DNA of 61,325 nucleotides, filler included, from Rhabdomonas costata (lineage: Eukaryota): NCBI GenBank assembly GCA_019059605.1. It is 15 parts of 15 records of this genome, joined end to end, with 100 filler letters (N's around TTAATTAATTAA, not from the genome) between each part and the next. Parts side by side here need not be neighbours in the genome. Positions count along the whole stretch, not along the records: positions 45,122 to 49,106 come from JAHMHO010000421.1; 14 more parts are not named here. One strand, written 5' to 3'. A program made the translations under genes and the position numbers. The notes under the pieces are model-generated. The model saw only the letters and a program-made list of their open reading frames with translations, searched no databases and had not been told where the DNA came from. Every line of letters begins with the position of its first letter. Within the stretch, counting starts at the first letter, position 1. Positions 4,007 through 57,399 of the stretch are shown here, in pieces.

Positions 4007-4106
4007 NNNNNNNNNNNNNNNNNNNNNNNNNNNNNNNNNNNNNNNNNNNNTTAATTAATTAANNNNNNNNNNNNNNNNNNNNNNNNNNNNNNNNNNNNNN
4101 NNNNNN
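4007..4106. other. Artificial contig spacer (N44-TTAATTAATTAA-N44); first of 14
   Basis: The same 100-nt spacer, with stops in all six frames, recurs at 8114, 12255, 16351, 20452, 24554, 28644, 32763, 36853, 40940, 45022, 49107, 53184 and 57258. It separates ~4-kb contigs. Confidence 0.98.
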
Positions 4107-8000: not shown

Positions 8001-8269
8001 CCACGCGCCACATTTTTATGCCATTCTCTGTGACTTGGTCCGCTTCCTTCGGAACCTGTGTCACCGATGTTTTTCCACAAATCCATAAATTTGGTGCCCT
8101 GTGGTATTGAATGNNNNNNNNNNNNNNNNNNNNNNNNNNNNNNNNNNNNNNNNNNNNTTAATTAATTAANNNNNNNNNNNNNNNNNNNNNNNNNNNNNNN
8201 NNNNNNNNNNNNNTGTGTTGGGTTTTACTCATTGAACGGTACAGTTCTCCCGTCCTGAAACTGTGTGAT

Positions 8270-10587: not shown

Positions 10588-10780
10588 CACGTCCACACAG
10601 ATTGTCCCAAAAACTCGCAAAAACACACCAAATCCACCTGCACTTCTTTGATANNNNNNNNNNNNNNNNNNNNNNNNNNNNNNNNNNNNNNNNNNNNNNN
10701 NNNNNNNNNNNNNNCACGTCCACACAGATTGTCCCAAAAACTCGCAAAAACACACCAAATCCACCTGCACTTCTTTGATA
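10588..10780. repeat. 66-bp direct repeat flanking an N gap (scaffolding overlap)
   Basis: 10588-10653 is identical to 10715-10780, separated by Ns at 10654-10714. Confidence 0.85.
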
Positions 10781-38680: not shown

Positions 38681-40310
38681 GTGGGGGTGTCCCCTGGCGT
38701 GGTTGTCCTCGAGGTGGCCGCGGGAGCGCAGCACACCCTGATTCGCACCTCGACTCATCAGGTGTGTGGGTGCACAGGCTCAAAATGTGAGCCCAGGCCC
38801 TAGACTGGCTGGTGGTCATTTCTCCTTTTTGGAATCGGATGTGGTGCCATCGTCTGGTCATGGTAATCCCTGAAGCCCTGGTCTCGCTGGTCATGGCAAT
38901 CCCTGAAGCCCAACATCGCTGTACGACCCATCCCAGAACTCTGAATGGCCCAACCTAGTTGTCTGCTTTCCTTCTTGCTCACCAAGGTTGCCAGCCCCGC
39001 TGTGCCCCCACCATCTTGAACACACAGGTCTATAGCTTTGGCTCCAATTCCGCCGGGCAGCTGGGTTATGGTCTTGTGAGCCCTACAGACAACACCACTG
39101 TGCTGAACCTTAGTTCTGTCCCCATGGAGATCACCCCGTGGTTTGACTCCCCGGTGGTTCAGCTCGCTGCAGGGTACAAACACACATTAACGCGCAGACA
39201 CATACACACATGCAGGTATGCACTCACATCTTCCGTGTTGCTTGCTTTCCCTCTCCCCATGGCGGTGCCCTTTGGTAGTACTGCCTTTCCGTTGCCATTG
39301 GTTGATATAGCTGATGTTGGTTGATGTAGTACAAATGTCTCATTGCAGCGTATAGATCTGAATCAACACGTGAACTCAGCCAGACCACTCCTCCCTCGCG
39401 CCCGGGGTGTCCTCGTCGAATTGGACTGCTTGCAGTCCGCACGCACGCACGTGTGCTACCCCACAATGAGGAAGTGGCTCGTGGAAGGGAACTGCTCATG
39501 TCGTTCTGTGCTGACATTCACTGCAGTGCAGTGCAGTGCAGTGCAGTGCAGTGCAGTTTCGTGTTCTGAAATGCGACTAGTCTGGTCTGCTTGAGGCTTC
39601 CATAAATTTTGGAACGGCCTGCGTCCTTTTCCTGCAGGTGTGCACATAGCGTGGCGCTGACTCAGGCGGGGCGGGTGTACGTATGGGGAAGCAACGAGCA
39701 TGGGCAGCTGGGGTTGTTGGGTGGCCCCTCCGTGACAAACCTCTCGGACATTCCCATCGACATCACAGGTGCGCAACTGCAGACCCTCGCTCCCCTCTCC
39801 CATCCTCCCATTGAGTCCTCTTTTGCTCCGGCTCCGATGTACCGGGCCCATTTTCTGTCCATGTGGGTTAGGGTTTGTTTTGTACTATCTCCACGCACAC
39901 TGCTCTGTGCCACTGCCACAATCCAGTCTCCACTCTCTCACCCACCCCACTCACCAGCACCACCGCAACGTTTTTGGCAAAATGTGAAACGATTCCAACT
40001 TACTAAAATTACAGCGTCAGTACCCAACCTAAGATCGCCCTCGCCCACAAATGCCCCCCCCCCATTCACAAGCCATCCCATCTCACCTCTCCCCTTTTCC
40101 CAGCTTCCTTCGCGGTTCCCGTCACCTCGGTCGTTGCTGGGTGCAACTTCACTGTGGCGCTGTCCCGCTCCGCGGGGTCCCTCACCACGGTGTGGTCGTT
40201 TGGTCAGAACTCCGCTGGGCAGCTCGCCACTGGGGACTTGATGGACCGGGCGACCCCGACCAATGTCACCGCCGCCTTCCTCCCGGAGACGCTAATCAGC
40301 GTCAGCGCAG
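38681..40310 (+). CDS. RCC1/BLIP-II repeat protein, internal exons 38681-38761, 39028-39173, 39638-39768, 40104-40310
   Basis: Repeats VAAGAQHTL..|VYSFGSNSAGQLG, LAAG|CAHSVALTQAGRVYVWGSNEHGQLG and VVAGCNFTVAL...VWSFGQNSAGQLA. Junctions are in phase. Confidence 0.9.
39522..39557. repeat. (GTGCA)n pentanucleotide microsatellite in RCC1 intron
   Basis: About 7 tandem units, seen directly. Confidence 0.9.
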
Positions 40311-41579: not shown

Positions 41580-43031
41580 GGTCAAAAGAGAGGGAATTGC
41601 TGCCGTCGGCCGCGGGGCCGGGGTGCCGGCCGGTGCGGTGCTTCTGCAGCCCCTCGTCCATGTCCCTGACGTGCGCGCACAGCCGTTGCAGCGTGCACTC
41701 CATCTCCGCCACCTGTGGGAGAAGGGGGAAGGGGGGACGGCTTGCACAAACCACGAAGTAAACACAATAAAAAAGGTATGTGTGTGTGTGCAAGTGCACA
41801 TGTGCGGTGTATGCACGTATGTGAGAACACGAGTGATCGTTTGGCATTGTGTATCGCAGAAGCGGCGTTCTGCCGAACGTTTCGTTTGAAGGGGTGGCAC
41901 TTGTCCACTTGGTTTTCCAGGCAATGGCTGCTCCGCCAATGCAGATTCCCCACCGCTGTTGGGTGCAAACGCGGGACTCGAACCCAAGACCTCTAGGGCG
42001 GGAGACCTGTGTTCGACCACTGGACTACGGGGGGAAGCCCTGGGACGGCGCTCCCATGGCTCCTGTACCGAGAGGGTGGAAAATTGTGCCTGCAAGAGCG
42101 GGGATTGAACCCGGAACCTTCCCACAGAGAGACCGGAGAGCAGACCACTGAGGCAGCGGTCGCGCTGGAAGATAAAGGGAAGGGGGGGAGTGATCTAGGG
42201 AAGGTATGACGTCGCTGAAGAAAAAGCAATGCAGAAGCAGCAGCAGAGAAGGGACACAAACAACGCAACACAAACAACGCACACGGACGGACGGGATGAC
42301 GATGGGGGGAATCCCGCCCAAGACCTTCTCCGCGAGAGCCCCATGATCACGCCCTGTGACCTCATCCACCACAGGGTCTTTTGGTGAGGTAGGGAGCGTG
42401 GACGGCACCACCACAACTGCCGCACCCCCGCTGCCACAGCCGCCCACTGGGATAGCTGAGGGCGTGGTTGCAGAGGGTGGGGTGTCGCGCAGGTCTAGGG
42501 CGCGGTTCAAGGGGAAGAAGCTGATGTCCCGGCGCTGAAGCTTTGCGCTGACGTAGGACTCCTGGCCTGTGTACTCGTCCTTTGAGAGGGCAGGGGGGCG
42601 AATTTGCGATTGCAATTGTTTCTATTCATTAGCAGTCTCGTGCTTCTTCTGGTGCTGGTGCAGTTTTTGTGTCCTCGTTCTGCCTTCTGTCCAGCGTTCG
42701 TCCTTCTTCAAGTAATAATTTATACGATTGACGGGCAGAGAGCAGGGGAACACATTGAACTCAGAAGGGAAGGGGTGGGAAGGGAGGGGATGAAGATATA
42801 GAAAGGGGGAAATGTGCCAGAGTGATTCCGCGGTGTATGTACAGCGGCACAAGCAAGTAAAACCAAGTGAAGAAGTCTTTATGCCTCCTTCCTTCCTTCC
42901 TCAGAGCAACAGAGGAAGATACACCGGTTCACGCGCAGAATAATCTCGCCGCCCTCGCACACTTTTTCAGAAAGCTTTAGGTCTCTGCCGTAGGGGCTCG
43001 AGTTTGGCGGGCAAGCACTAGTTCACACTTA

Positions 43032-43072
<41 letters not shown>

Positions 43073-43787
43073 CAGGCTTGCGCTGCAGGTGGTGCATGAA
43101 GTACAAGTACTGTGGGAGCGCAATTGCCCAAATGAAATAGCAGCACGAGCAATTGGCAATCGCCACACAAAATTCACCCCCAAGCTCACCCTCCAGTCTT
43201 TACTGGAACATTCCGGTCCAGTTCAGAGCAGAGAAAGGGGCTCATGTTTGTTCCCATTTGGTGGAAGCGACTTTTGGTCAATGCACCAAATGCCTCCAAA
43301 CAGCAAAAGGCGGGGTCGAACATCCACAGACGCGCATATTTTTTCCCGACCGACCTTCATGCAATGCACTTAGGTAGCACGCGGGGGCGAGGGGAAGGGT
43401 GAGACCTGCCACATGTTGTGAGCGTGCTTGATGTGGTGGGCGAACCCCTCCTCGGTGTACCTAAAGATGCCGAACGAGCCAATCTACCCCACATTCACCA
43501 CATAATGTGTGGGAGGGAGTTGAAGTTGAGGTTCCAGAAATGGGAACTACTGTCAGTGGTGGATCAGATTAGTTCAGCAACCTTCAGTTAGGCAGCACAG
43601 GGGAATCAGACCTTTTCTGGACTCTGCAGATAAAACAATCGAGGAGTTGAGGCAATAGCTGAGAGGGAAATCATTGCGCAACCCACCTCACAACAAAAAG
43701 TATATGAGTATCAGCAGTCTCGCGGCAGATAAGAAGGTGCGCGGGGAGCAAGTGCCTGTCAAAGGTGTACGCGTCGATGCCGCAGCA
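41580..43787 (-). CDS. ITPR: Inositol-1,4,5-trisphosphate/ryanodine receptor family channel, C-terminal part; exons ~43787-43756, 43460-43406, 43109-43071, 42579-42325, 41712-~41580
   Basis: CGIDAYTFD|RYTEEGFAHHIKHAHNMWQ|YLYFMHHLQRKPE|DEYTGQESYVSAKLQRRDISFFPLNRALDL matches the IP3R C-terminal C2H2 / HNMW / EYTGxESYV signature and is followed by a coiled coil. Confidence 0.88.
41964..42034 (-). ncRNA. tRNA(Gly)-like pseudogene or SINE head, copy 1
   Basis: A-box TAGTCCAGTGG, B-box GGTTCGAGTCC, a CCC anticodon-like loop and a 3' ...TGCA. The acceptor stem does not pair. Confidence 0.6.
42091..42162 (-). ncRNA. tRNA-like pseudogene or SINE head, copy 2
   Basis: A-box-like TGCCTCAGTGG, B-box GGTTCAATCCC and 3' ...TTGCA. 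Colinear similarity to copy 1. Confidence 0.55.
43035..43070. repeat. (CA)n/(TG)n microsatellite forming an IP3R intron donor
   Basis: The minus strand reads gag|gtgtgtgt... Confidence 0.9.
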
Positions 43788-45121: not shown

Positions 45122-47930
45122 CGGTGACCTGATGCGAGGATTGGCCCCTGGGCCATCCGGGCTGAGGGCTGATCACTTGCTGCAGCTGGCAGCTTTCCAG
45201 CGGGGGAAGAACAAAGCTGCGCTCGCTGCTGCTTTGGCGTCCTTAATTAAGGTGGCTCTTGCAGGGCAGATACCCGCTGATCTTGGGCGCTGGCTGTGTG
45301 CCGGGAGAGGTGTTCCACTTCGAAAAAAGGATGGGGGTGTACGCCCCCTTGTGGTGGGAGAAGTTTTGCGTGCAACCATTTCTCGCTATGTTATGGTACG
45401 CTCTGAAGTTGCCGCTGCCGAGTCATTACCTGCAGTGCAGTTGGGCTTCTCTCCAGGACGGAACGGCATGCAGGCAGGCATATTTGCAGCGCGACTGTGG
45501 GCTCAGCGAGTGATGTCGAATAAGCATCTGGTCATGGTTAAGCTGGATGTTCGCAATGCCTACAACAGTATCTCCCGTCACTGCTGCTGCGAGGTAGCCG
45601 ACACAATTGACCCCGAACTTTCACAATGGGCACGATGGTGCATGGCCACTCCGGCGCTGCTCAGCTGCAATGGTGAGTTGGTCCTCTGTCGCACCGGTGT
45701 GCAGCAGGGCGAACCTCTGTCGCCGATACTCTTTTGTGCAGGCTTGGCACCAACTGTAATGGCAGTTGCCGAAGGGCATCCTGAGGTTGCGCAGCAATGG
45801 TACTTGGATGACGGGCTTCTCTGTGGTGAGGCTGCCCGCGTGGCCAAGAGCCTGCCCGATATCGAAGCTGCCTTAAGGACGTGCCACTTGGAGCTTAACT
45901 ACAACAAATGCGAGGTTTACTGCCTTGACCCCGAGTCTGTGCCTCAAGAACTACGACACCTCCCTATCGTCGTGAACCCCCGGGACTGGTCCTATCTGGG
46001 TTCACCACTGAGGGGTTGCGGTACCGTGGCCCTTAAAGCTGCGGAGCGGGCCAATGCTGTGGCGTCGATCATTGCCAAATTTGGAGGAAAGTTTCCGCTG
46101 CAGGCTATGCAGCTGCTGCGCTACACTGCTGGTGCTTGTCGTGTACAGCACCTTTCCCAAGCTCTTCCCACGGAAGAAGTTTGGGATGAGGTCCTCAGAC
46201 CAACGCAAGCGGTCCTGCGGAAAGCGTTGGAAGAGATAATCGGATGTCTGGTGAGTGACAAGCAGTGGTTGCACGCCTCGCTACCAGGGCGAATGGGAGG
46301 GTTGGGAATGGCTGATCCTACCGTTGCAGCACATGCGGCCCGGTTTGCCATGATGGTCAATGCTCGGGATGCAATGAGTCAACTCGGCATCCCGCACTCT
46401 TCCATTATCGAGGCGACGAGGGTGGCGGCAGCTGCGTACTGGAACAAATGGGACTTAAAGGGGAGCATACCATTGCCCTCGAAGTCCCTCCAGAAGGATT
46501 TAACCGATGCTGTTCATTCTATTCGGAGGGCGCATTTGGTGGCAGATGTTAACCCCCTGGACCAGGAGCGGTTGACGTCTACTCTCAGTCCACACGCATT
46601 GGACTGGACGCAGGGACCCAGCCCATGGTTTAGCCTCACCCCAGAAGAAGTCCGACAATCCGTGCGCTGGGTGCTGGGGGTCCCAATTAGACCGGGCCCG
46701 TATACTTGCCCTTTCTGCGGAGGTCTTGCTGATGCGAACGGAACTCATGCTGTGGCGTGCGGAATGACAGGTCCCACTGCAATCGGTCACTCTATCGTTA
46801 AACGGGTGCTTGGTATTGTCTACAAGGAGGCTGGTGGTACTGTCGATTTTGAGCAGCCCCGAGAGCGGTCGGGACTGCACCCCGCTGATCTCCTGGTGTC
46901 CGGTCTTACAGCTAAGCCTCTGGCGATTGACCTAACGATCTGGTCCAGATACTGGGATGGGCCCGACCCGCTTGATGCTGTTGTTGCACGCAAATTGCGC
47001 AAGAACAAACCAATGTGCGTTGCCAAAGGCTGGGTATGCAAACCATGGGCCGCAGATGTATATGGCGGGCTTCACCCGGCAGCGCGTCAGATGGTGGCAA
47101 GAGTAGCCAGGGAGGTGGCGAAGAGATTTTCGGATATACCCTCAATCTCCTCTGCTTCCAAGATGGTTTGGAGAGCTGTGTCAGCGGCAGTGTTGGCAAG
47201 GGCGGCAACCCACTTGGTAAGGCACGTCACCTCAGACGTGAGTCAGGTCACCGTGCCTGGACGACCACAGGATGAGCTTGCAGGCGTGGAAGATGGGGAG
47301 CTTAACTTGGCGGACGAGGAGGACGAGGCTTTACTCAGGATTGAACCGGATGCAACAGGAAGCCCAATCGATGCGGCAGCGACCTCAGCCACCCTGGGCA
47401 TCAACACCCCACCGCCTGGTGAGCTGATGGTTACTGGCGAGGAGCTTGAGCGGACTGCGATCACGGAGCCTTCTTTCTGGGACCTCGTCCCCAACGCCGA
47501 GCTGGGCCTTGCCCCATGGCCCCGCGACTTCGTTTTGCTGCAAGGCCCTGCGCCTGTGGCAGCATTTTCTGTGCACGCCCCCGGGAAGCAGCGGTTGCGA
47601 GAGCAGCTTCCACTCACAGCTAACGTTGGCGTGCTCAAGGAGCGGGCAGCGCAACTATGGGGCGTAGGGCTGCATGAGTTCTGCCTCAGCCTGAAGGGCA
47701 GCGTCCTGGACGAGCTGACACCCCTCCACCACTATGTGCGAGGTGGGGCGGACCTACTCGCAGTGGCGAGTAGTCCCGCCCAGATCCCTTGAATTTGGCA
47801 TGTTCGGCTGTGACAATGTTGACTTTGACAACCTTGAGGGGCTTTTCAGGCGCACAGCTCCTCCACTTGTACAGTATTTAATGCCCCTCCCCCATTTTGT
47901 TCAACTTGTTCCCTCCCCTTTTATTTTTTT
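45122..47930 (+). mobile_element. CRE-clade non-LTR retrotransposon (5' cut by contig edge)
   Basis: Single intronless ORF with RT, CCHC and REL endonuclease domains, then a short 3' UTR and a T-rich tract. Confidence 0.88.
45132..47792 (+). CDS. Retrotransposon polyprotein: reverse transcriptase, CCHC knuckle, restriction-like endonuclease and C-terminal ubiquitin-like domain
   Basis: RT motifs APGPSGLRADHL, PLRKKDGGVRPLVVGEVLR, KLDVRNAYNSISR, GVQQGEPLSP, WYLDDG, YLGSP and SLPGRMGGLG. Knuckle CPFC-x8-H-x3-C. REL motif PADLLV...AIDLT. Ubl-like segment at ~47565-47766. 886 codons without a stop. Confidence 0.9.
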   Translation: MRGLAPGPSGLRADHLLQLAAFQRGKNKAALAAALASLIKVALAGQIPADLGRWLCAGRGVPLRKKDGGVRPLVVGEVLRATISRYVMVRSEVAAAESLPAVQLGFSPGRNGMQAGIFAARLWAQRVMSNKHLVMVKLDVRNAYNSISRHCCCEVADTIDPELSQWARWCMATPALLSCNGELVLCRTGVQQGEPLSPILFCAGLAPTVMAVAEGHPEVAQQWYLDDGLLCGEAARVAKSLPDIEAALRTCHLELNYNKCEVYCLDPESVPQELRHLPIVVNPRDWSYLGSPLRGCGTVALKAAERANAVASIIAKFGGKFPLQAMQLLRYTAGACRVQHLSQALPTEEVWDEVLRPTQAVLRKALEEIIGCLVSDKQWLHASLPGRMGGLGMADPTVAAHAARFAMMVNARDAMSQLGIPHSSIIEATRVAAAAYWNKWDLKGSIPLPSKSLQKDLTDAVHSIRRAHLVADVNPLDQERLTSTLSPHALDWTQGPSPWFSLTPEEVRQSVRWVLGVPIRPGPYTCPFCGGLADANGTHAVACGMTGPTAIGHSIVKRVLGIVYKEAGGTVDFEQPRERSGLHPADLLVSGLTAKPLAIDLTIWSRYWDGPDPLDAVVARKLRKNKPMCVAKGWVCKPWAADVYGGLHPAARQMVARVAREVAKRFSDIPSISSASKMVWRAVSAAVLARAATHLVRHVTSDVSQVTVPGRPQDELAGVEDGELNLADEEDEALLRIEPDATGSPIDAAATSATLGINTPPPGELMVTGEELERTAITEPSFWDLVPNAELGLAPWPRDFVLLQGPAPVAAFSVHAPGKQRLREQLPLTANVGVLKERAAQLWGVGLHEFCLSLKGSVLDELTPLHHYVRGGADLLAVASSPAQIP

Positions 47931-48043
47931 TTGATTCTTTTTTGATGTGTGTGTTGGTGTGTTTTTGTTATGTTTTGAAATGGATCTCTTGAAATGGATG
48001 GGTGAGGAGTGGAATTGGGCCTTGGTGTTGCTGTGACGCTCAG

Positions 48044-48461
48044 GTGGTTACCGGGGAAAGGGCAGAGCGGGAGCAGCTCGAGGCCTTCCTGGCCAACTTT
48101 GACTTCGACCGGGACGGCCGAGTGACCTTTGCGGTGCCCTTTTGTGCAACCCGTTCCCACGCACCCTGCACTTGCCTGCCCGTTCTCTCTTTCACTCCCT
48201 CCCTGATATCTGTTTTACCGATGTCCCGTTCCTGGATATTGTTCAGCGTTTTTCAGGTTATTGCGTATTTCACACTGATTCGTCCTTCGATTCTTTTTCA
48301 GTGTCTTCAACGTGAGACCCCCATCCCGTTGCATCCAGGAGTTTGAGGACTACTACACCTTCGTCAGCGGAAAGATGGACAGTGACGACGAGTTCCTACA
48401 GCTGATGGACCGGGCCTGGAACCTGGACAAGCGCAACCTCGTGGGGATCCCCTTCCACTGA
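48044..48461 (+). CDS. Calcyphosin-like EF-hand protein, last two exons 48044-48133 and 48339-48461
   Basis: VVTGERAEREQLEAFLANFDFDRDGRVTFA|EFEDYYTFVSGKMDSDDEFLQLMDRAWNL matches the calcyphosin C-terminus (EFxDYYxxVSxxxDxDxxFxxMMxxAW). Confidence 0.85.
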
Positions 48462-50191
48462 CCAATGATGGACCTCTTCCTCCGCGGGGCTTTCCTCCCC
48501 GCTCGGCATGCGACTCTGTGCCATGCAGGAGTTGTCTCTTGTGCAATGGCCGTGGGACGGCTTCGCTACACCACTGTGCCCCCGATTTTTCTCCAATGTG
48601 TGATGTACGTTGAATGTTAATTTGTGCATACCTGCGTACCTTTTGTGTGATGGTTGCTTTCTTTGCACCAGAGTACTGTTTGTTGTGTTAGGTGTGTTAT
48701 TTTGTTGGCGCGCGACGCTCAGCTCAGCGACGGAGGAAGACCACATGCTCTCATCTATGCAGCGCGTGCCTCGGAGGAAACAGGCGGCAACACCTGCACA
48801 TATCGACATATCGGTGCACAGATGCACCACGCATCGTTTTGAAATTGAGTTGGGAGACGGATTCCTTTTTTGACCGCACCACCCAAAAAGCAACATAAAA
48901 AGCAGAACATTTGGAAAACTCCTCTTGGTCAGTCAGGTCTTTTTGATGGTGTGGTGCCGTTTTCTTTTTGCATTTTGCACTGTTGAATGGGGGCCCAACG
49001 ACGGAGCGAAGAACGCGCTGGCGAGCGCAACGACAGGTAGGAAACCTACGTCAACACTTACGTATTACATCAAACCCTTGTTCGTCACGCCGCAGGCACA
49101 CAAAAANNNNNNNNNNNNNNNNNNNNNNNNNNNNNNNNNNNNNNNNNNNNTTAATTAATTAANNNNNNNNNNNNNNNNNNNNNNNNNNNNNNNNNNNNNN
49201 NNNNNNTGTTTGTTGTCGTTTTCTTTCCCCGTTCTTCAGGTCCTCCGATGTGGGGCTTGCGTGCGCTTTCTCTGGTGCGAGAACCAGAGCCTGTGAGAGA
49301 CACAGGGTTGGGTTTATTTCGCTTTCTTCTCCAGCTTTTGTTTGCACTCGGCGCTCCTTTTTGTGTGCTCTTTCTCTGCATGATTTGTCCCAACAGATTC
49401 TCTTCTACACCATGCGTTTCAGCCATTGCTTCTGAGCAAAGCATTCTCTTGCCTTGCCAGCAAGGACTGATTCCAGCCCAAAGTCAACGGTATTTGGACT
49501 TATGCTGAGACGTATTCATGTCTGTGTGCTTTCACACCCACTTTTGTGGAGAAGAACTGACTGATACGTCGATGAATGGCATCGACGCTCTGCTGCGATA
49601 CCTCTGTATTGGTTCCTTTGTCTCAGTGTGTACCCTCTTACTTGTCAAACGGGAGGTCGTTGAGTGTTGAGTGCTGAGTCTCAAATCTATCTGTCCTGCT
49701 TTGCTGAAACTCCCACACAAACATCCACATAGAAAACGTGTGATCTGCTTTTTATTGAATCGCCTCCAAAAAGGAGGATGAAACCCAGGAAATGACGAAA
49801 ATGCCGAGTGCTCTTCTTTGTTTGTTTCTTCTGAAAAAGTCAGCTGTAGTATCTTGAAGGGGCTTTTGTGCCATTTCCCCTTCGTTTAATTGCTCTCTAA
49901 AATGGTCCATTATATCCGCCCCCTCTGCCTCGTGGTACTCAGGTTCTCTTCAATTCTTTCTCTGAGTAACGTGGGAACCGCAGTGAGCAACAAAATGGGT
50001 GTGGGTCTGCCGTGGCTGATAGTGCTCAAATCCAACGTGCTGTTGCCAAACGCACGGAGCACATACGCCCACTCACCCGCCCTTTCGAAATTTCCGCTGT
50101 CAGGCCTCCTGCGAAGATGCGAAGAAGGGCGTGATGTGCGGCCATTTAGGGATGGGGTTTTTTTATGACTTTCGTGCCCATTCTCCGTCAG

Positions 50192-56765: not shown

Positions 56766-57399
56766 CGAGACAGGCTCCATCAGGCAGCGCGTTTGCCTGA
56801 CACTGGGCTCACGACCACAAAGGCAACACTCTATGGACTAGAGAATAAGGATCCGCAAGCTAAATGTCTGCGAGCCCTCTTGGAAATCTGTGCAAGTTTG
56901 AAACGGCTCCGTCCGAGTTGCAAGGCAGCCTAAAGCGGTTTGTAATTTACGATTGTAATAAGGTGTTCAAGAGAAGAATTTTAGGAAGGGAAGAACAAAA
57001 TGGGCTCGTTAGCAGAAGCATTGCATGAAGACCTTGAATCATATTCCAAATGCACCTTATTCCCATAGTGCATGACAGGGGTTTGGTTGTGGTGCCCCGG
57101 TCTGGTGCTGAGCCTTTCCTCCAGGAGTTGTGTACTGTCCGAACTGCTGTTGGCTTCACATCTCTTCCACCAGGAACCGGGCATTGCTGGCTCCGGGACA
57201 TCCCCGCTGCCCCCCGGCAGTTGCTCGGCGACAGTCATGACAGTAAACCCCAAAAACNNNNNNNNNNNNNNNNNNNNNNNNNNNNNNNNNNNNNNNNNNN
57301 NTTAATTAATTAANNNNNNNNNNNNNNNNNNNNNNNNNNNNNNNNNNNNNNNNNNNNTTTGGGGGTTGTGGTCAACAAGGAATCAGCGGTAGCCCTCTT

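Follow-up and report, generated by a model that had tools for sequence, protein, structure and literature searches.

The window analysed here is a stretch of 61,325 bases from Rhabdomonas costata (GCA_019059605.1). It consists of 15 pieces of ~4 kb each with N44-TTAATTAATTAA-N44 linkers between them (at about 4007-4106, 8114-8213, ... 57258-57357) and is not one locus; pieces lying side by side are physically unlinked, and context across a linker is meaningless. The piece at 45122-49106 carries a retrotransposon without long terminal repeats (non-LTR), whose single open reading frame (ORF) runs through a reverse transcriptase (RT) and a restriction-like endonuclease (RLE) into a C-terminal tail, with a terminal domain that is predicted to be ubiquitin-like (Ubl). 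Since the pieces were joined artificially, the sequence upstream of 45122 is unrelated to the element. No second copy of the element was found within the 61,325 bases by tblastn, in which only the element itself matched. The features of the element are as follows.

45123..47792, plus strand: single retrotransposon ORF, 889 codons plus stop.
45321..46004, plus strand: reverse transcriptase domain, Pfam RVT_1, residues 67-294.
45801-45815, plus strand: location of the RT motif YLDDG.
46707..46760, plus strand: CCHC zinc knuckle preceding the endonuclease, CPFCGGLADANGTHAVAC, read from the sequence.
46878..47009, plus strand: catalytic motifs of the PD-(D/E)xK restriction-like endonuclease, from sequence and alignment.
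47166..47225, plus strand: last helix of the conserved core, VWRAVSAAVLARAATHLVRH, the anchor for the start of the tail.
47226..47471, plus strand: acidic disordered linker of 82 aa with 19 D/E and 3 K/R, from composition and the predicted local distance difference test score (pLDDT).
47475..47549, plus strand: conserved short motif FW..PN..LGLAPWP..F..QGP, from the alignment.
47550..47771, plus strand: predicted ubiquitin-like beta-grasp domain of 74 aa, tail residues 31-104, from AlphaFold2 (AF2) and DSSP.
47772..47792, plus strand: SPAQIP, the end of the protein (residues 105-110 in the numbering of the 110-aa tail query), with the TGA stop.
47793..48040, plus strand: post-stop sequence of 43% GC, presumed 3′ untranslated region (UTR) and element/host boundary.

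The reading frame stays open between 45123, the base that follows the N-linker, and the TGA at 47790-47792, and the ORF is uninterrupted within one contig. Its 5′ end is cut by the contig break, leaving it ~410 N-terminal residues short of the full-length relative P0090 (RVT_1 starts at residue 67 in the window ORF and at residue 480 in P0090). The RVT_1 match is strong (E 1e-14, 55.2 bits against a Pfam cut-off of 29.6 bits). The CPxC..D..GxH...C pattern of the zinc knuckle is conserved in a 40-sequence alignment, and the endonuclease motifs follow in the order HPAD, 13 residues, IDLT and the K-rich ARKLRKNK, with PD...D at 46878-46943 and the K-rich segment at 46986-47009. An earlier sequence-only reading of this DNA had proposed that the ORF continues in frame past the endonuclease through an acidic linker of ~110 aa into a ubiquitin-like domain. 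The in-frame continuation is borne out, with the correction that reading from the position given for its start, 47225, is off by one base and meets 8 stops, the frame of the tail starting at 47226; the linker is acidic and is 82 aa long. The pLDDT of the linker is below 50 over model residues 210-281, and its alignment columns are gappy and unalignable between relatives. The short motif that follows, with the core FWDLVPNAELGLAPWP at 47475-47522 in the window copy, is 50-88% identical between family members and has no confident fold, its pLDDT being 51-56 when modelled alone and 60-71 in a longer AF2 model. The stretch FSVHAPGK...ADLLAV occupies 47565-47765 and is followed by SSPAQIP and the stop. 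Poly(A) is not present in the 248 bases after the stop (47793..48040). The GC content at third codon positions (GC3) is 0.71 in the motif-plus-Ubl part (47475-47789, 105 codons), 0.57 in the RT-RLE part (45123-47225, 701 codons) and 0.60 in the linker, a contrast that may stem from a different origin or just from local composition.

In the structure predictions the terminal domain is a ubiquitin-like beta-grasp fold, as the sequence-only reading had claimed. In two AF2 models with pLDDT 85-95, DSSP assigns a β-β-α-β-β-(3-10)-β topology over ~75 residues, with β1 at 33-39, β2 at 46-51, the helix at 56-67, β3 at 74-78, a short β4, the 3-10 turn at 89-91 and β5 at 97-103 (tail numbering). The models superpose closely on solved structures of ubiquitin and Ubls, with an identity to known Ubls of 14-27% in the structural matches. 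Searches against the PDB point the same way. With phmmer (E ≤ 10), all 19 matches of the tail are Ubls (18 of the ISG15 type and one SF3a), the best having an E of 0.017, and a profile of the family matches Ubls in 33 of 37 cases, the best being ISG15 (E 0.0016); the other four are reovirus lambda-1 chains, which match the upstream core of P0003. All named look-alike clusters in the ESM Atlas belong to the ubiquitin family (0.86-0.87) and serve as leads only. Taken alone, the sequence evidence for a Ubl is weak and no more than suggestive. The domain is near neutral in charge (7 K/R and 6 D/E), and its most conserved surface feature is the β1-β2 loop, H..G(R/K).R. The window copy ends in SSPAQIP and lacks the C-terminal Gly-Gly of conjugatable modifiers. 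The complete relatives stop 3-5 residues after the last strand, and none has a terminal Gly-Gly; they end in PGPR (P0076, P0077, P0078 and P0102), LGPR (P0003, P0087 and P0086), GPV (P0079) or PGPAG (P0082). This agrees with the earlier description of a non-conjugatable domain.

The last 188 codons are a genuine inherited part of the protein of the element. With the 110-aa tail as query, phmmer was run exhaustively against 1.84 billion representatives and retrieved nine true relatives with E from 2e-23 to 3e-6. A tenth match was rejected, since P0085 (E 7e-4), a repeat protein of 1978 aa, is unrelated. In a word-indexed search with the whole ORF, the core of P0003 is 57% identical to the window ORF, and over the last 101 residues of P0003 the alignment with the window tail is gap-free, with 42% identity (E 3e-18). 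The whole order can be seen in P0087 (636 aa), a cluster mate of P0003, from the end of the RT through CCHC, RLE, acidic linker, motif and Ubl to the stop. The tail is joined to the same endonuclease core in P0003/P0087, in P0076 and P0081, both of which have the end of the core upstream of the tail, and in the locus L001. The Ubl is thus an integral, in-frame domain of a multidomain RLE-type protein, kept in relatives, as had been proposed. Among the seven sequences with most of the domain, pairwise identity of the Ubl is 29-85% with zero indels. L001 is the sole locus confirmed from 116 pattern matches in a scan of metagenome DNA with a 4-sequence query. It is a decayed copy (1-1395) with RLE, linker and Ubl in order, the RLE being in frame 1 (1-522) and the Ubl frameshifted after SELVG; the protein predicted from it, P0080, results from this frameshifting. 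The substitution test that the earlier reading had suggested could be made for one pair, the window and L001, and gave pN (the proportion of nonsynonymous differences) below pS (that of synonymous ones) in the motif and N-terminal half of the Ubl (0.34 and 0.71, 54 codons) as well as in the endonuclease (0.16 and 0.76, 144 codons), with a core 74% identical.

The element is an RLE-type non-LTR retrotransposon. This class follows from the RVT_1 domain together with the structural and sequence matches to R2, and the layout agrees with it, a CCHC knuckle and then a PD-(D/E)xK endonuclease lying downstream of the RT domain. An AF2 model of 46620-47789, built from the 40-sequence alignment, has a pLDDT above 90 for its first 208 residues. 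Its best Foldseek match is the R2 protein 9dou_A (E 1.4e-6, 232 columns), and the further matches (9nl3_A, 9nl2_A, 8iby_C and 8gh6_A) are all R2 retrotransposon proteins as well. When the whole ORF was compared by sequence with the PDB, only R2 proteins matched, in the RT region (E 0.0012 and 0.0016). C2H2-like patterns can be seen by eye in the N-terminal region of the full-length relatives P0090 and P0012, for which Pfam reports only RVT_1. No Rfam match was found in the stretch, and the spliced-leader motif of dinoflagellates has 0 matches when up to 3 mismatches are allowed.

Two distant RLE-type relatives, P0012 (residue 86) and P0064 (residue 189), carry near the N-terminus the sequence DVEENPGP, which we take to be 2A-like from its likeness to the 2A consensus. 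PMC3708506 reports 2A-like sequences in non-LTR elements of the apurinic/apyrimidinic endonuclease (APE) type and in trypanosome Ingi/L1Tc.

Where does the Ubl come from? Part of the answer lies in the relatives that lack it. The end of the core could be anchored in 12 of 13 relatives examined, P0008 being the one without an anchor. In eleven of the 12 the core helix is followed by 70-207 residues, and in the other, P0002, by 22, with its cluster mate P0090 showing a fuller form. The premise of the sequence-only reading, that such ORFs usually end soon after the endonuclease, is thus untrue of the element's own kin. After acidic linkers of their own, P0090, P0004, P0005 and P0010 end in a different C-terminal module, the last 50-60 residues with the pattern [FI]RV..R ... 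R.L.[WY].D...G.R[VI][WY], which P0007 has in truncated form; the R.L.[WY].D...G.R[VI][WY] pattern occurs in 18 of the 121 collected proteins. The more distant relatives P0009 and P0008, which have no Ubl, carry the N..LGL..WP...LL motif as in the Ubl lineage, followed by LL.E.RY.PP, and the N..LGL..WP motif looks like an older short linear motif that is independent of the Ubl.

A tree of the core with the tails removed was calculated by maximum likelihood (IQ-TREE quick search) with support from the Shimodaira-Hasegawa-like approximate likelihood ratio test (SH-aLRT) and midpoint rooting only. It holds 24 hand-picked rows (the window, P0087, P0090 and 21 of 74 core matches, one row being a Porphyridium protein) and leaves out short fragments and the other 53 matches. 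The window and P0087 form a pair with support 100, sister to the pair of P0090 and P0006 with support 98, and both pairs lie inside a clade of seven rows (support 100) together with P0004, P0005 and P0007; P0009, P0008 with P0010, and P0012 are placed outside it. Because the Ubl lineage is nested among relatives with a different C-terminal module, the Ubl looks acquired, which fits the earlier proposal of a captured domain. The simplest reading of this tree would be that the alternative module is older and that, on the branch leading to the subclade of the window, it gave way to a newly gained Ubl. As the best matches among known Ubls are only 14-27% identical, the donor is not identifiable.

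What could a terminal Ubl do for such a protein? E1 enzymes are not known to activate a Ubl that lacks the C-terminal glycine, and integral Ubls of this sort are known to work through non-covalent binding. The lack of Gly-Gly together with the tether therefore favours a tethered, non-conjugatable docking module. Held on a tether of ~110 residues, made up of the 82 acidic disordered ones and the motif, the Ubl would dock non-covalently and would link the RT-endonuclease, or its ribonucleoprotein (RNP) when at the target site, with a host partner able to read ubiquitin- or SUMO-like surfaces. Our preferred reading, which we hold with somewhat better than even confidence, is that the inherited tail, made of an acidic tether, a motif and an acquired terminal Ubl, acts in this way. 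In an alignment made by eye to the ubiquitin pattern quoted in the sequence-only reading, anchored on the conserved G..L.....L..Y and numbered as in ubiquitin, the presumed equivalents of the Leu8-Ile44-Val70 patch are Ala, Ser (in the window; Ala or Thr in relatives) and Val. With the patch so altered, a classical receptor, whether a ubiquitin-associated domain (UBA), a ubiquitin-interacting motif (UIM) or a proteasome receptor, is not an obvious candidate partner. The FW..LGLAPWP segment, whose pLDDT is low both alone and beside the core, probably serves as a linear motif for binding in trans. A bolder version is also conceivable, although we regard it as doubtful: an R2-like lineage would bring along a ubiquitin/SUMO mimic tethered by a long acidic leash and with it hijack host machinery that recognises ubiquitin-like surfaces, such as factors of DNA repair, of chromatin or of the segregase kind, where target-primed reverse transcription (TPRT) takes place, and the wider family would swap C-terminal adaptors (the Ubl, the R.L.W.D..G.RVW module, or LGL..WP alone) in adapting to its hosts. 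If this were true, the C-terminal tail would be a modular interface with the host, of a kind as yet unrecognised in non-LTR elements.

Several points weigh against these interpretations. The Pfam ubiquitin family PF00240 scores below its cut-off on the terminal domain (11.8-13.7 bits against 25.4, E 0.056-0.21) and matches just two of 11 family members at E ≤ 1; the domain is therefore filed at the level of fold or superfamily and not as a member of PF00240. The selection test is a single pair in which one member is a decayed copy and the synonymous divergence (dS) is saturated, so that pN < pS is supportive and not decisive. A word-indexed search with residues 690-889 gave no match at E ≤ 0.001 among 8000 candidates, and a profile search of the same index found P0003 as the sole tail match among proteins of 409-2000 aa. 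With one long tail-bearing protein cluster besides the window copy, the Ubl lineage is thinly sampled, and what is at hand is one intact copy and a thin set of environmental relatives. The tree comes from a quick method with 24 hand-picked rows and a midpoint root, and the docking function is one that we infer from the architecture.

About 250 bp past the stop of the element, and on its strand, a host EF-hand gene shows two stretches that look like exons. The one at 48041-48139 gives weak matches to EF-hand_7 and EF-hand_1 (E 9e-4 and 0.023), and for the one at 48300-48461 the matches are calcyphosin, at its C-terminus (PDB 3e3r, E 3e-5), and RIB22, a ciliary protein (E 0.0026). The element may lie inside or just upstream of this gene. 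A scan of the 3′ flank for bacterial promoters and terminators was empty, which has no bearing on the present element. Elsewhere in the window, on other pieces, an ORF at 39606-40241 (plus strand) has by eye an RCC1-like repeat signature (RVYVWGSNEHGQLG), and a (CA)n microsatellite, read as CVCVCV/THTHTH, occupies 42977-43373. Apart from the linkers, the stretch contains a run of 61 N at 10654-10714 and a single N at 31157.

The host exons bear on the most sceptical explanation of the tail, namely that it is non-functional and arose by chance read-through, from a host exon through insertion or 3′ transduction, or as an assembly chimera. The stretch is indeed a string of ~4-kb contigs, the exons lie only ~250 bp downstream on the same strand, and GC3 is higher in the motif-plus-Ubl part than in the RT-RLE part. 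Against this, the ORF is continuous within one contig, and relatives whose cores are only 57% to 74% identical to that of the window show the same succession of core, acidic linker, motif, Ubl and stop. The tail diverges in step with the core, with zero indels across 29-85% identity and pN < pS, and nine diverged relatives keep it. We consider this explanation largely refuted and extremely improbable; chance read-through, which the sequence-only reading had named as one of the outcomes that would overturn it, is not borne out. Alternatively, the tail might be a self-association module that pairs two ORF proteins through Ubl-Ubl or motif-Ubl contacts, a pairing that RLE elements may require for cutting both DNA strands, and the FW..LGLAPWP motif, having no confident intramolecular docking site (pLDDT 51-71), could bind in trans. 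No observation points to self-association, however, and we rate it as very improbable.

Two further explanations give the Ubl another task. It might be an RNA-binding domain like the C-terminal UBL of SF3A1, to which it has a structural match and with which it shares the C-terminal position, and it would then hold the RNA of the element (for example a stem-loop of the 3′ UTR) or a host RNA during TPRT. The SF3A1 UBL, however, owes most of its RNA affinity to its C-terminal RGGR tail (PMC8833184). That RNA-reading tail is absent from the present element, which ends in SSPAQIP without any Arg in the window copy and in PGPR in relatives, the tail being unconserved; the domain is, moreover, near neutral and preceded by a strongly acidic linker. 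An RNA-binding role is unlikely in our judgement. Alternatively, the Ubl and the disordered linker might control turnover, either by delivery to the proteasome (self-limitation) or by stabilising or solubilising the ORF product. The equivalents of Leu8 and Ile44, Ala and Ser/Ala/Thr in the same alignment by eye and with the same presumed numbering, speak against this, self-destruction is hard to square with purifying selection in a selfish element, and the structural matches that this explanation calls on do not stand above those to SUMO, ISG15 and SF3A1 (differences in Z below 1 being ties). We consider control of turnover quite unlikely.

RLE-type non-LTR retrotransposons are the earliest-branching elements of the long interspersed nuclear element (LINE) kind, and R2 is under development as a tool for gene insertion. 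To our knowledge, the engagement of host factors by the proteins of these elements is poorly understood, and a conserved terminal Ubl would offer a concrete handle on it. Restricted to one subclade, where it seems to replace another module, the Ubl would also amount to a natural experiment on the role of the C-terminal tail. It would add the ubiquitin fold to the accessory domains of retrotransposons, the known ones including RNase H and Ulp1 protease. A Ubl domain in a non-LTR retrotransposon was not found described in the full-text literature, a scope outside which Repbase, subscription journals and supplements lie, and this architecture may already have been catalogued.

How does the element compare with known systems? 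It shares with R2 (R2Tg, R2Bm and turtle R2; 9dou, 9nl3, 9nl2, 8gh6 and 8iby) a single ORF with the order RT, CCHC and PD-(D/E)xK RLE, and its predicted C-terminal core superposes on that of R2. In contrast to R2, its endonuclease core is followed by a further ~190 residues made up of acidic linker, motif and Ubl, the identity in structural alignments is only 14-18%, and its 3′ flank is near an EF-hand gene, insertion into ribosomal DNA (rDNA) not being established. With the CRE clade (CRE1/2, SLACS and CZAR), to which the sequence-only reading had assigned it, the element has in common the general layout of N-terminal zinc fingers (presumed in the present element, whose 5′ end is cut), RT, and then zinc finger plus RLE. 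It differs in that no spliced-leader context is seen, and its membership of the clade is a label only; we know of no CRE element with a Ubl. Among the Ubls themselves, the SUMO-like domains of Rad60/Esc2/NIP45 and the C-terminal domain of ISG15 differ from the present domain in sequence (identity ~17-24%), and ISG15 is a conjugated modifier with a terminal Gly-Gly. Pestivirus polyproteins carry a near-identical insert of host ubiquitin or Ubl that serves as a cleavage signal upstream of NS3. The likeness lies in the capture of a host ubiquitin-family sequence into the polyprotein of an RNA-templated element; the present Ubl, unlike those inserts, is highly diverged, and because it is terminal and has no Gly-Gly there is nothing downstream of it to release.

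Kojima and Jurka list CRE, R2, R4, NeSL and HERO, plus Dualen, as the RLE-encoding non-LTR clades, and their paper (PMC4640811) describes accessory domains in NeSL and Utopia elements, namely a Ulp1-like cysteine protease in nematode NeSL and in Utopia-1_TSP and an RNase H in oomycete Utopia; the word 'ubiquitin' does not occur in that paper. These elements resemble the present one in being RLE-type non-LTR elements with extra domains gained in particular lineages, and they differ in that their additions are enzymes placed at the N-terminus (RNase H and a protease of the SUMO type) and not a C-terminal Ubl. Gain of domains in single lineages is thus normal for the RLE group, and one of the known gains touches the ubiquitin/SUMO system.

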